Source: Pseudomonadota bacterium
GTDB lineage: Bacteria > Pseudomonadota > Alphaproteobacteria > Rickettsiales > UBA3002
DNA length: 64,000 nt
NCBI GenBank assembly: GCA_040384265.1
Contig: JAZKJM010000005.1
Span: 501,332 to 565,331, forward strand
Direction: 5' to 3'
Part shown: positions 30,496 through 33,076 of the stretch, piece after piece
Layout of the letters: each line of letters begins with the position of its first letter
Position numbering within the stretch: position 1 is the stretch's first letter
Notes under the pieces: generated by a model
Told to the model about the DNA's origin: nothing
The model's database searches: none
Seen by the model: the letters and a program-made list of their open reading frames with translations, nothing else
Made by a program: the position numbers and the translations under genes

Positions 30496-30550
30496 GAAGC
30501 ACCTATCCACAATATTTATGCGCTTAGTAGTGCAGCCCTGAGTTGTGCTT

Positions 30551-30579
30551 TCGATAGCATAACACACGGTATGTGTCAA
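30551..30579 (-). promoter_or_regulatory. Sigma70-like promoter of cassette A (TTGACA-N17-TATCGA)
   Basis: Minus-strand reading gcggTTGACAcataccgtgtgttatgcTATCGAaag. One of a family of similarly built promoter-plus-leader units (see 31468, 32576, 33048). Confidence 0.4.
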
Positions 30580-30601
30580 CCGCAGCAAATAGCCAGATGA
30601 A

Positions 30602-30806
30602 TATCCAGCGCCGCAAGCTTGCCATAGGCGCTGCGGCCGCCGGTTTCGCCGAACAGCTCGGTGGCATTATCGATCACGCCGTTCTTGTTCACATCCCGCG
30701 CCAGCCACCCGTCGTTCGCATCCAGCCACTCCACATGCTCCGCGAACTTGTCGCCATCGATATCGAAGAACACTTTGCTGTTGGTGATCGACTGATACTT
30801 GATCCC
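30602..30806 (-). pseudogene. Stranded fragment of an RTX gene (homologous to 29123-29327 of the intact gene; residues GIKYQSI.NSKVFFDIDGDKFAEHVEWLD...GKLAALD)
   Basis: Hand alignment: 205 nt, no indels, about 12 mismatches, one run of ~66 identical nt. It lacks both the head domain and the RTX body. ORF 30576..30773 translates FFDIDGDKFAEHVEWLDANDGWLARDVNKNGVIDNATELFGETGG..., then diverges into the cassette A promoter. Confidence 0.85.
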
Positions 30807-30825
30807 GAGTCAAAAATGCCATTTC

Positions 30826-31410
30826 CTACCTCCTATCAAAGATCAAATCACAGTCCCTGCCTTTGCATCCCTCGTATTTTTTTATATTCGCTCTTTGAAT
30901 TACATAGTGATTGGATTTTTGCACTTCAAATGGCACTGTGGCCTTTGAATCAATGAGCGTAAGCACTGCATTCTGGCGGTCTGCGCAGATATTAAATATG
31001 TATCGCAACTGAGGCAGAGGATATTGGATAACCGCAACCGACTTTTTATCTTTGATAAATATAAATGCCTTGTCCCCTTCTCTTACAGACGGAAACAAAT
31101 CAAGTTCCGGCAAATCGCTGCCATAAGCATTACGATGCCCCATATCCTCCCTAAGATGGGCGTAACCACCCATTACGCAGACCGTGTCCCAATCAAAACT
31201 GACTAAGTCGCGCACATAAACTTCGGTGCGAGAGGCCATGCCCTCAGCCAGCGATTGCTCGAAAGAAACCTGTTGCGAGGTAGAATATGAGGCCAGCCGA
31301 CGATACTCAGGATGGAGTACTTTGCTCCAGTCCACACACACCCATAGCAACAGCGCTACACCAACGCACCATGCCGCTACACACACCGGGCTTTTTCCTG
31401 TCATCGCCAT
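30826..31410 (-). CDS. Cassette B: small N-terminally membrane-anchored protein (candidate orphan immunity protein)
   Basis: Frame of ORF 30826..31431. Start trimmed to ATG 31410 (MAMTGKSPVCVAAWCVGVALLLWVCVDW...; GGATAGGT box upstream). 194 aa. The N-terminal ~28 aa are homologous to cassettes A, C and D; the remainder is unrelated. Confidence 0.6.
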   Translation of the reverse strand: MAMTGKSPVCVAAWCVGVALLLWVCVDWSKVLHPEYRRLASYSTSQQVSFEQSLAEGMASRTEVYVRDLVSFDWDTVCVMGGYAHLREDMGHRNAYGSDLPELDLFPSVREGDKAFIFIKDKKSVAVIQYPLPQLRYIFNICADRQNAVLTLIDSKATVPFEVQKSNHYVIQRANIKKYEGCKGRDCDLIFDRR

Positions 31411-31467
31411 GAAGAACCTATCCGCAAACATTCACACACGCAGTTGTGCAGCTTGAGGTTGTATTGT

Positions 31468-31496
31468 TGCGTAGCGCAATAGGCCACATGCGTCAA
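31468..31496 (-). promoter_or_regulatory. Sigma70-like promoter of cassette B (TTGACG-N17-TACGCA)
   Basis: Minus-strand reading aggTTTGACGcatgtggcctattgcgcTACGCAaca, followed by a leader homologous to those of cassettes A and D. Confidence 0.35.
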
Positions 31497-31563
31497 ACCT
31501 AGATACCAGTTTGTCAGTTCTTGCACTATGAGTGCCATAAAAACTTACCTAATCAAAGGAACA

Positions 31564-32037
31564 TCACCACATACGCCCACAGTTGGTGCTGCCATAATAC
31601 ATTTGCTTGGGGCGCGTATGCACTTGCCCATCCTCACCTTTAAACCTCTCCGCATATTCCACTGCAACAATATCGGCATTCCTGCCGAATCCAAGGAACT
31701 CTTCAAGTGTGCTGCGCGGAGACCACAATCCATCACCAAAATCACGCTGCCCCACTTGGCAACAATTGGGGTTCTTTTCCTTAAAGTCCTGAACACTTTG
31801 ATAACTAATGGTGGGGTTCTCTCTGCTCCCTTTGTAGTGGTCACCCCAAACTACTGCTGGCTGCCGATAGATCATTTCAATAATCCCATCAATGCGCTCC
31901 TCATCGCTCAACCAACGCTTATCCGCCCAGCAAAAACCGGTCATATTGAACCCGCCCCAAACACACACCCATAGCAACAGTACTGCTCCAACGCACCACA
32001 CCGTCATACGCACCGGATTTTTTGTTCTTATCGTCAT
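31564..32037 (-). CDS. Cassette C: small N-terminally membrane-anchored protein, paralogue of cassette D
   Basis: 157 aa. MTIRTKNPVRMTVWCVGAVLLLWVCVWGGFNMTGFCWADKRWLSDEE... aligns with cassette D. Shared NPNCC and C-terminal CG motifs. 26 nt after the cassette D stop (co-transcribed). Confidence 0.65.
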   Translation of the reverse strand: MTIRTKNPVRMTVWCVGAVLLLWVCVWGGFNMTGFCWADKRWLSDEERIDGIIEMIYRQPAVVWGDHYKGSRENPTISYQSVQDFKEKNPNCCQVGQRDFGDGLWSPRSTLEEFLGFGRNADIVAVEYAERFKGEDGQVHTRPKQMYYGSTNCGRMW

Positions 32038-32063
32038 CAGGAACCTACTTTGAAAGCATTTTA

Positions 32064-32519
32064 CTAGAAAATATTGCCGCAGTTATCCAAGCCATTATCA
32101 AAGCTAATTTGCCTCGTTTGTTTCGTGCCGGACTCATCTATGTAACGCATAAGATAATTGATCCTGACGGTGCTAGTGTAATTGTAACTCAAGCTCCTTG
32201 GCGGAAGATCCATGCTGCCTTTTGGATTCAAGGTGCAACAGTTTGGGTTGAGGGCTTTGAACTCATCAAAATCCTGATAAGGAATTTGTTCATAATCCTT
32301 GATTATAAATTGGCCCATATGCTCAATAGTGAACGGAAGTATTTTCCGGTGCATATGGTATTGCACCGCCATTTTTATTTTTTCTTCATCACTCAGCCAG
32401 CGCTTATCCGCCCAGCAAAAACCGCTCATGTTTAGACCGCCCCAAATACACACCAGAAAAAATACCGCGCCAATACACCACGCTGCCATACACACCGGAC
32501 ATTTTTCTTTTACCGCCAT
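32064..32519 (-). CDS. Cassette D: small N-terminally membrane-anchored protein, paralogue of cassette C
   Basis: 151 aa. MAVKEKCPVCMAAWCIGAVFFLVCIWGGLNMSGFCWADKRWLSDEE... . GGATAGGT box upstream of the ATG. Confidence 0.65.
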   Translation of the reverse strand: MAVKEKCPVCMAAWCIGAVFFLVCIWGGLNMSGFCWADKRWLSDEEKIKMAVQYHMHRKILPFTIEHMGQFIIKDYEQIPYQDFDEFKALNPNCCTLNPKGSMDLPPRSLSYNYTSTVRINYLMRYIDESGTKQTRQISFDNGLDNCGNIF

Positions 32520-32575
32520 AAATAACCTATCCGCAAATATTCACACGCGCAGTCGCGCAGCCCTAGGCTGTATTT

Positions 32576-32603
32576 TCGCTAGCATAACAGCCGGATGTGT
32601 CAA
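32576..32603 (-). promoter_or_regulatory. Sigma70-like promoter of cassettes D-C (TTGACA-N16-TAGCGA)
   Basis: Minus-strand reading gcgTTTGACAcatccggctgttatgcTAGCGAaaat plus the conserved leader ...gggctgcgcgactgcgcgtgtgaatatttgcggataggttatttATG. Confidence 0.4.
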
Positions 32604-32670
32604 ACGCGGCATAGCACACACCCCAATTTGCCTACAGCTACTGCCATTTCACCCCCCCATTTTTAAGCAG

Positions 32671-32946
32671 CTAATTTAAAGAAATGCTTCCAAGCGTCGC
32701 TTCCATTCGTCGAATCACACGATTACTCAAATGAATAATCAGGCCGAACAGCAGCAAGGGAAAAATCATCAAGATCGGCACATACGACAAGTGCCATGTA
32801 TCGCCACTGCCGGTTGGTAAAGATAAAAAGATGCTGAGCACAAAAAAAACAACAATGGCTGACTGCGATATTTTCTTAAGAATTTGGAAGAATCTTTTCT
32901 TTATCCTGACTTGCTGAATAGCTAGCTCTAGGTAAAAATCTTGCAT
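32671..32946 (-). CDS. Cassette E: small two-TM membrane protein (hypothetical)
   Basis: Frame of ORF 32671..32997. ATG 32946 (MQDFYLELAIQ...) or TTG 32997. Two hydrophobic helices (SAIVVFFVLSIFLSL, VPILMIFPLLLFGLIIHL). Very AT-rich. Preceded by the same promoter type. Confidence 0.35.
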   Translation of the reverse strand: MQDFYLELAIQQVRIKKRFFQILKKISQSAIVVFFVLSIFLSLPTGSGDTWHLSYVPILMIFPLLLFGLIIHLSNRVIRRMEATLGSISLN

Positions 32947-33047
32947 AAATCCCCTAATATCTTGATTGCGAAGTGACGCTCGAAAGCATTTCGCCAAACT
33001 TCCTGCCTCGCAGCCACTCGTTTAGCCGCACGTATTAGATTGTATTT

Positions 33048-33076
33048 TTACTAGCAGCAGAGGCTGTGGACGTCAA
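33048..33076 (-). promoter_or_regulatory. Sigma70-like promoter of cassette E (TTGACG-N17-TAGTAA)
   Basis: Minus-strand reading gcgTTTGACGtccacagcctctgctgcTAGTAAaaatacaatc. The start of the leader resembles the cassette D leader (aaatacagcc). Confidence 0.4.

Follow-up and report, generated by a model that had tools for sequence, protein, structure and literature searches.

Genes of the locus and the repeated head unit

In a 64-kb stretch of an alphaproteobacterial genome assembled from a metagenome (Rickettsiales, UBA3002; GenBank assembly GCA_040384265.1, contig JAZKJM010000005.1, positions 501,332 to 565,331), which we call the window, five small genes named cassettes A to E are read on the minus strand ahead of one large gene, and the subject of this work is the short unit repeated at the heads of these cassettes. 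Along the minus strand the order is E, D, C, B, a fragment of the coding sequence of a self-processing module (SPM), then A, and finally the large gene, which encodes an RTX protein with an FrpC-type SPM of its own (Table 1). Cassettes A, B and D carry a common unit of about 125 nucleotides (nt), their gene bodies differing, and the unit consists, in this order, of TTGAC-N15/16-GCTA, a leader of about 50 nt, GGATAGGT, the ATG and about nine codons.

The reality of the repeat is supported by several measures. In the alignment of the A, B and D copies, 72 of the 127 columns are invariant, and in the 95 nt that precede the ATG the pairwise global identity is 74% for A–D (z = 14.0 against shuffles), 74% for B–D (z = 12.6) and 63% for A–B (z = 8.0). 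The first 30 coding nt are 70–83% identical across the pairs of cassettes A to D (z 6.5–8.2), and the gene bodies have no nucleotide similarity (z about 0), the similarity being lost at different codons, namely about 10 for A, about 30 for B and about 50 for C/D. A profile hidden Markov model trained on the A, B and D copies and searched over the window recovers its own three copies at E-values of about 1e-36, and beyond them it finds no copy in the 64 kb other than the partial ones at C and E. The first-pass annotation of this DNA, made from its letters, had described precisely this distribution, with only the end of the unit at C and the promoter geometry plus the leader start at E, and the three leaders that it quoted for A, B and D are found letter for letter on the minus strand. 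The partial unit of E is 57–63% identical to the other copies (z 4.7–6.8), and it is followed by a distinct leader of about 105 nt that runs up to the ATG at 32946.

As for the encoded proteins, C and D are paralogs (37% amino acid (aa) identity, E-value 9e-36), B shares aa 1–26 with both of them, and A shares only about ten codons with the others, while BLASTP shows no further relationship among A, B, C/D and E; hence, the earlier description of the bodies as unrelated holds among these four groups and fails within the C/D pair and at the start of B. Each of the A to D proteins opens with a hydrophobic anchor and has 6–8 cysteines, the start of this membrane anchor, M-A-x-x-x-K-x-P-V, being encoded within the unit itself.

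Table 1. Coordinates of the head units, cassette genes, candidate displacement scars and domains of the RTX protein in the window.
Feature	Position	Strand	Description
Unit A	30466..30590	-	TTGACA 30579-30574; GCTA 30558-30555; GGATAGGT 30508-30501; ATG 30495-30493; first ~9 codons MAIRAKNPV; profile E-value 3.5e-36
Unit B	31381..31507	-	TTGACG 31496-31491; GCTA 31475-31472; GGATAGGT 31423-31416; ATG 31410-31408; homology to C and D runs on to about codon 30
Unit D	32490..32613	-	TTGACA 32603-32598; GCTA 32583-32580; GGATAGGT 32532-32525; ATG 32519-32517; profile E-value 1.1e-38
Partial unit C	32008..32047	-	Distal end AGTAGGTtcctgATG and first codons only, without promoter; model positions 87-126, E-value 6e-5
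Partial unit E	33034..33084	-	TTGACG 33076-33071; GCTA 33055-33052; first ~12 nt of leader; model positions 4-54, E-value 5e-4
Gene A	29881..30495	-	204 aa; N-terminal membrane anchor; 7 Cys; stop overlaps toxin gene start; candidate cognate immunity protein
Gene B	30826..31410	-	194 aa; orphan immunity candidate; toxin partner presumed lost
Gene C	31564..32037	-	157 aa; D paralog; orphan immunity candidate; start 27 nt after D stop
Gene D	32064..32519	-	151 aa; orphan immunity candidate
Gene E	32671..32946	-	91 aa; hydrophobic; no Cys; outermost cassette
SPM coding-sequence fragment	30602..30808	-	205 nt; Gly9 to Asp78; between B and A; non-genic
Putative relic gene start after B stop	30805..30822	-	AGGAGGtaggaaATGGCATTTTTGACTCGG; out-of-frame join to SPM fragment; letters read directly from the sequence
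N-terminal effector domain (candidate)	29355..29891	-	aa 1-179; His17, and Cys101 in motif NNCVDF
SPM (FrpC-type)	28857..29354	-	aa 180-345; preceded by Ser, not Asp
Remaining RTX protein	26013..28856	-	Conserved linker, HCBP_related domains, RTX nonapeptide repeats

Promoter-like boxes, probable ribosome-binding site and leader

The pattern TTGAC-N15/16-GCTA occurs four times in the window, each time on the minus strand and at the head of A, B, D or E; 0.56 occurrences were expected, and none of 100 shuffled sequences reached four. The promoter-like pair noted at the outset was likewise borne out, given that TTGACR-N17-TANNNA matches A, B and E (0.46 expected), D having a spacing of N16. In alphaproteobacteria, as represented by Caulobacter, the RpoD consensus is TTGaCgS / GCtANAWC (PMC8144410). 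The -35 element fits its first half, with TTGACAC in A and D, TTGACGC in B and TTGACGT in E, and GCTA is invariant in the four cassettes at 13–14 nt from the -35 heptamer, within the 10–19 nt of the consensus; the closest homologs derive from alphaproteobacterial bins. At the other end of the unit, GGATAGGT stands 5 nt ahead of each ATG, as a ribosome-binding site (Shine-Dalgarno sequence) would. The units can therefore reasonably be taken for housekeeping-sigma (RpoD-type) promoters, a function that we infer rather than report as a result, and C, located 27 nt past the D stop, is presumably co-transcribed from the predicted D promoter.

With regard to the leader as an RNA, a search of Rfam over positions 25000–35000 on both strands gave no match at E ≤ 1, and folding against dinucleotide shuffles gave z values of +0.29, +0.76 and +0.87, that is, no extra stability, with predicted structures that differ among the copies. 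The covariation term of RNAalifold is -0.31 kcal/mol, a value that comes from three full copies only and thus has almost no statistical power. The fold and compensatory-change checks proposed together with the first description of the unit thus gave no support for a structured leader, which we regard as unlikely.

Two further elements were seen near the units. A sigma-54-like -24/-12 match, TGGCACtcataGTGCA, at 31537–31522 of the minus strand upstream of unit B, was dropped as a candidate since the corresponding stretches ahead of D and A do not match such an element, and it is probably due to chance. At 30592–30609 of the minus strand, exactly at the junction of the SPM fragment with unit A, there is a weak terminator-like hairpin plus TATTTGC, which could insulate the predicted A promoter against read-through.

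The putative RTX toxin downstream of the cassettes and its co-varying partners

The large gene (29891–26013 of the minus strand) encodes a protein of 1292 aa, with HemolysinCabind (E-value 8e-28) and HCBP_related (E-value 1.5e-22) matches and an SPM that is similar to that of the Neisseria FrpC structure 6SJW (phmmer E-value 7e-26). Its N-terminal domain has no significant match in Pfam, and its His17 and Cys101 are invariant across four sequences; the AlphaFold2 model of this domain (pLDDT 79.5) finds the T6SS (type VI secretion system) effector TseH of Vibrio as its best fold match in the PDB (6v98; prob 1.0), followed by Aichivirus 2A (H-box/NC protein) at an E-value of about 0.6. The SPM (PF26745) is annotated on all 33 of 33 homologs, and it is the part in front of it that varies, some N-termini carrying PF22322, PF13688 or PF11617. 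The types seen are the His/Cys type, DUF6973, Reprolysin_5, MopE-like and a Gly-rich hydrophobic type, with the boundary at the (S/D)-P of the SPM, which in the window is Ser179-Pro180 (VS/PIAFDLNGDG, the slash marking the edge; 29352–29357) and which is also S-P in the closest homologs. Across the loci fetched for comparison (L001–L102), the residue before the SPM proline makes D-P in 47 cases, S-P in 36, T-P in 5 and K-P in 4, and this large non-Asp subclass may not cleave, or may cleave via a different chemistry. In a Sinobacterium relative the gene lies directly downstream of the C39-ABC and membrane fusion protein (MFP) genes of a type I secretion system (T1SS), which is consistent with type I secretion of the RTX protein.

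The small genes co-vary with the N-terminus of the toxin. A has a homolog in L017 (31% identity, E-value 1e-23) and another in L021 (E-value 2e-11), each directly upstream of a homologous toxin N-terminus of the His/Cys type, so that the A type accompanies the His/Cys type in three loci, the window included. For B, the matches are two L015 proteins, at 36% and 32% identity, which are located upstream of DUF6973-like toxin N-termini. In these homologs of A and B the homology begins only past the membrane segment, the N-termini and the upstream DNA being different, which means that the repeated head belongs to the locus and not to the protein family. A homolog search with D returned only D itself, C and one stand-alone gene, whose upstream region is without the unit, and E has no homolog among the loci examined, nor is it similar to the small membrane proteins encoded in L020 and L021. 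The stand-alone gene (P0003; L010, 4145–4636), with 34% identity the sole C/D homolog outside the window, lies between MFS transporter and radical-SAM genes with no toxin gene nearby, and it may be a solitary orphan immunity gene. Altogether, A to E look like immunity-type genes, and the toxicity of the large protein and the immunity conferred by the small ones are predicted from these pairings.

Related loci

The closest homolog (53% identity) is encoded in L015, a locus that comprises three B-like genes, a short remnant of a toxin and a complete toxin N-terminus joined to an SPM that is cut short, with the main SPM gene coming last. L015 also has a repeated head of its own, different in sequence from that of the window and 60–138 nt long, in four copies (6489–6626, 7894–7953, 9264–9399 and 9946–10005), each ending on the GTG start of a cassette. 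Within this head lie a hairpin, CGTCG-CACA-CGACG, and the ribosome site GAGGGG; two of its copies reach 75 nt further and abut an SPM fragment. In L021 an SPM fragment and an A-type gene come first, then a His/Cys toxin whose SPM is truncated and two small membrane proteins, and last a Gly-rich toxin that has the full SPM and the RTX repeats. L020 has an SPM fragment together with a consensus-like promoter, and it encodes a membrane protein of 62 aa and a toxin of the Gly-rich type. Open reading frames (ORFs) of truncated toxin plus SPM lie in L015 (8517–9398) and L021 (10001–11089), and both L020 and L021 have more fragments. In L017 and L018, which are single-cassette loci, no shared head was found. 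A scan of contigs with the constant region returned only distant RTX proteins with an SPM, often C-terminal in giant adhesin-like proteins (L003, for example), and these loci were set aside as not comparable.

The SPM fragment and other probable displacement scars

The non-genic SPM fragment between B and A is 93–94% identical to 29123–29329 in the large gene, its ends are sharp, and it stops 22 nt short of the -35 box of unit A. Its differences from the full copy are mostly synonymous, as expected of two once-functional alleles. Right after the B stop come AGGAGG, an ATG and six codons, which then run out of frame into Gly9 of the SPM. Purine-rich stretches followed by ATGGCA were seen past the stops of B (AGGAGGtaggaaATGGCA; 30805–30828), C (31519–31545) and E (32620–32650), and these sites are possibly the relic starts of deleted toxin genes, the evidence being weak for E and C. 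An independent Logan assembly of the same sample (SRR26324625; L009 and L014) contains both junctions of the B/A spacer and breaks in the 205-nt SPM repeat, L009 ending about 50 nt into it and L014 resuming some 55 nt later; for the join across the repeat, the metagenome-assembled genome is the source.

The ends of the fragment recur in the relatives. In the window and in L021 (8941–9150) they are identical to the nucleotide, on the left at the Gly9 codon and on the right after ...GATA at Asp78, while the SPM DNA of these two loci is only about 60% identical, and the fragment of L020 (9255–9420) has about the same right end, ahead of another cassette type. Each SPM fragment is 79–94% identical to its own full copy over about 200 nt, and in the window, L020 and L021 a TTGAC -35-like box follows the fragment at 20–60 nt. 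Among about 100 fetched SPM loci, a same-strand SPM fragment just upstream of the main gene was found only in the closest relatives. The shared fragment ends, together with the identity of each fragment to its own copy, could possibly reflect an old, maintained bracket of SPM-derived repeats rather than random deletion scars, a reading that we think less likely than not.

Proposed origin and function of the head unit

We consider it probable that the unit of about 125 nt is the common expression head of swapped toxin–immunity cassettes. The observations behind this proposal are the repeat and its statistics, the domain architecture, the pairing of immunity and toxin genes in other loci, the SPM fragment and the absent RNA structure signal; promoter activity, type I secretion, toxicity and immunity, and the history of displacement are what we infer from them. 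The least secure links are promoter activity, toxicity and immunity, and the precise course of recombination. The head would comprise a housekeeping-sigma promoter, a short unstructured 5' untranslated region ending in GGATAGGT, and the first nine or so codons of a membrane anchor, and the toxin would consist of a variable N-terminal effector domain joined to the constant FrpC-like SPM and RTX repeats. The immunity genes would lie upstream because the toxic part is N-terminal. A new module, made of head, immunity gene, toxin N-terminus and SPM start, would enter 5' of the constant SPM and displace the resident one, with the old immunity gene staying with its own head and being pushed upstream, and the old toxin part being deleted, truncated or left to decay. 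The outcome of several such events would be the present stack of E, D-C, B, the SPM fragment, A and the toxin, in which the kept heads would let D (with C), B and E be transcribed, translated and inserted into the membrane independently of the toxin operon. The sequence-level marks of a polymorphic toxin system were found here, namely a constant/variable boundary, a co-varying adjacent small gene and remnants of the constant region; the shared head by itself is a modest and explainable feature.

Several results weigh against this proposal and should be kept in mind. The profile search, extended with nhmmer over 100 fetched loci, gave no matches other than those in the window and in contigs from its own sample, and a metagenome scan with the leader/start pattern GGATAGGTNNTTNATGGCGRTRANAGNAAA gave 0 matches; with the unit known only from this genome, selection and shared descent are inseparable as the cause of its conservation. 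The L021 array has no shared head, so a repeated head is not obligatory. The heads are 63–82% identical and the SPM fragment is 93–94% identical to its full copy, which makes the heads much older than the last visible event. On the promoter side, only the GCTA half of the -10 element matches, the NAWC half fitting poorly (GCTATCGA, GCTACGCA, GCTAGCGA, GCTAGTAA), and a standard E. coli-type promoter scan did not list the four TTGAC/GCTA sites. On the toxin side, the match to the TseH fold is weak (E-value 9e-3, TM 0.47), Ser-Pro stands where FrpC-type cleavage needs Asp-Pro, and no T1SS ABC/MFP pair was found among the ORFs scanned in the window.

Alternative explanations

A broader and tentative extension of this proposal concerns the whole clade. 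The N-terminal toxins and upstream immunity cassettes of the FrpC-like SPM-RTX proteins could possibly be a polymorphic antibacterial system exchanged without a recombinase, in which the exchanged block is bracketed by SPM-derived direct repeats, on the left the Gly9-Asp78 fragment and on the right the full SPM, the promoter-leader unit being the 5' end of the block.

Besides a regulatory element, the first-pass annotation had suggested that the unit may be the recombination handle that mobilizes the cassettes. What stands of this suggestion is that the unit marks the cassette heads of a recombining locus, as seen in the nested breakpoints at codons of about 10, 30 and 50, in the SPM fragment abutting unit A and in the separate head of L015, and the unit may have served as a handle in allelic exchange between close relatives; what finds little support is a dedicated mobilizing site, given that exact matches reach at most 14 nt and that neither a recombinase nor attC was found. 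No recombinase or integrase appeared among the ORFs scanned within about 10 kb or among the Pfam-scanned ORFs of the window, several ORFs of at least 150 aa being left unscanned, and the neighbours of the array are EamA, ABC transporter, DUF2339, TetR and hydrolase genes. Over 29800–33200 no attC-like inverted repeats were found at the cassette boundaries, the single inverted repeat being located upstream of E. Far from the array, at 61265–64000 of the minus strand, a large ORF of at least 911 aa has weak EF-hand-type matches near its C-terminal end.

In its stronger form, which we regard as rather unlikely, this idea makes the unit a dedicated left arm for homologous recombination and the coding sequence of the SPM the right arm, the unit being conserved because it allows the immunity body to be swapped together with the toxin N-terminus. 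The homology end-points are indeed nested within the 5' coding region, unit A begins 22 nt from the end of the SPM fragment, L015 follows the same logic with a different sequence, and the nearest relative switches along the unit, from A=D in the promoter (12:4) to B=D in the leader (16:7). Nevertheless, the maximum chi-square breakpoint test in the non-coding unit is not significant (permutation p = 0.057), and the L021 array does without a repeated head. RecA-dependent exchange usually needs about 20–30 nt, and the longest exact match among the non-coding copies, 14 nt, is below that length, whereas the SPM-derived sequence (79–94% over about 200 nt) would make a far better arm.

That the leader is a cis-regulatory RNA, or the target of a small RNA or RNA-binding protein that co-regulates the translation of all the immunity genes, seems to us quite improbable. 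The first-pass idea of a shared regulatory element survives in the simple sense of RpoD-like TTGAC/GCTA boxes and GGATAGGT, and not as an RNA-level element, for which there was neither an Rfam match nor any excess of folding stability, the structures differed between the copies, and the covariation term was -0.31 kcal/mol. In its favor, the non-coding leader of about 50 nt stays 70–82% identical, each of the three copies allows a small 6-bp hairpin (alignment A3, columns 58–73) in which two positions have changed on both sides, and the L015 head also has its hairpin (CGUCG-CACA-CGACG as RNA) in three of its four copies. Yet the 6-bp hairpin is mismatched in A and in B, and the coding nt just past the ATG match the leader in conservation despite amino acid changes, so that shared descent fits better than selection at the RNA level. 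By these searches the unit belongs neither to a known RNA family nor to the integron-type arrays, since no Rfam model matched and neither an adjacent recombinase gene nor attC-like repeats were found among the ORFs and positions scanned.

Finally, we give little credence to the view that old tandem duplications of one ancestral gene, whose bodies diverged beyond recognition, left the unit behind as a passive trace that now does no more than any gene start would. In its favor, C and D are true paralogs and have the first 26 aa of B in common with it, neither the metagenome pattern scan nor nhmmer on the 100 loci found the unit elsewhere, and covariation was not detected. We nevertheless doubt it, given that A- and B-type bodies have 31–41% identical homologs in other genera, with other N-termini and upstream DNA, and are thus distinct families instead of runaway-diverged copies, that the SPM fragment and the relic start point to insertion and displacement rather than to plain duplication, and that the residue of a recent tandem duplication, as the first-pass annotation had put it, is contradicted by bodies of different protein families and by copies only 63–82% identical, hence not recent.

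Significance and comparison with known systems

To our knowledge, no biological role has yet been established for FrpC-type clip-and-link RTX proteins. The window together with L015, L020 and L021 shows the genomic hallmarks of polymorphic toxins for this family, that is, a variable N-terminus on a constant SPM, co-varying upstream small proteins, truncated displaced toxins and stacked orphan immunity genes, and the defined gene pairs make the hypothesis testable. In this context, the repeated promoter-leader unit is chiefly a practical marker of cassette heads, and it also suggests that the orphan immunity genes stay independently expressed.

Integrons, and also the recombinase-associated immunity islands (rAID) of Bacteroidales, likewise line up unrelated small genes with a non-coding element recurring between them. 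The likeness of our locus to integrons ends there, since integron cassettes are promoterless and carry attC at their 3' side, whereas here the element is 5' of the genes and promoter-like, and no attC or recombinase was found in our scans.

The frpD-frpC genes of Neisseria meningitidis (PMC7078468, PMC5233953, PMC6759196) resemble the locus in having an SPM followed by RTX repeats and a small envelope protein encoded immediately upstream, and FrpC/FrpD has been proposed, as speculation only, to be an antibacterial effector/immunity pair (PMC6759196). Differently from FrpC, which cleaves Asp414-Pro415, the protein of the window has Ser before the SPM proline, with an N-terminal domain of the His/Cys type and multiple cassettes upstream, and the upstream proteins are membrane-anchored with no similarity to FrpD detected at the level of sequence, as distinct from structure.

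The orphans of contact-dependent inhibition (CDI) and Rhs systems (cdiA-CT/cdiI and rhs-CT/rhsI) share with the locus a constant trafficking part with a variable toxic tip, and a piece of the constant region at the junction, which here is the SPM from Gly9 to Asp78. In those systems the orphan toxin tip has the constant piece on its 5' side and the orphans usually lack a promoter, while here the piece lies 3' of the putatively displaced N-terminal tip, and the retained immunity genes, with the exception of C, have a promoter-like head.

A parallel in logic is given by the T6SS immunity arrays of Vibrio cholerae, where an incoming toxin–immunity module replaces the resident toxin and the old immunity gene is retained (PMC5361080). 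Both kinds of array have unrelated immunity families and remnants of displaced toxins, and in both homologous or homology-facilitated recombination would operate without a dedicated recombinase. The constant part here is the SPM-RTX body and not a T6SS-associated gene, and the arrangement, known in our case from sequence alone, is mirrored, with the putative toxic domain at the N-terminus and the array growing upstream. The candidate orphans also differ in their heads, given that D and B keep the full promoter-bearing head, E keeps its promoter part only, and C has no promoter.

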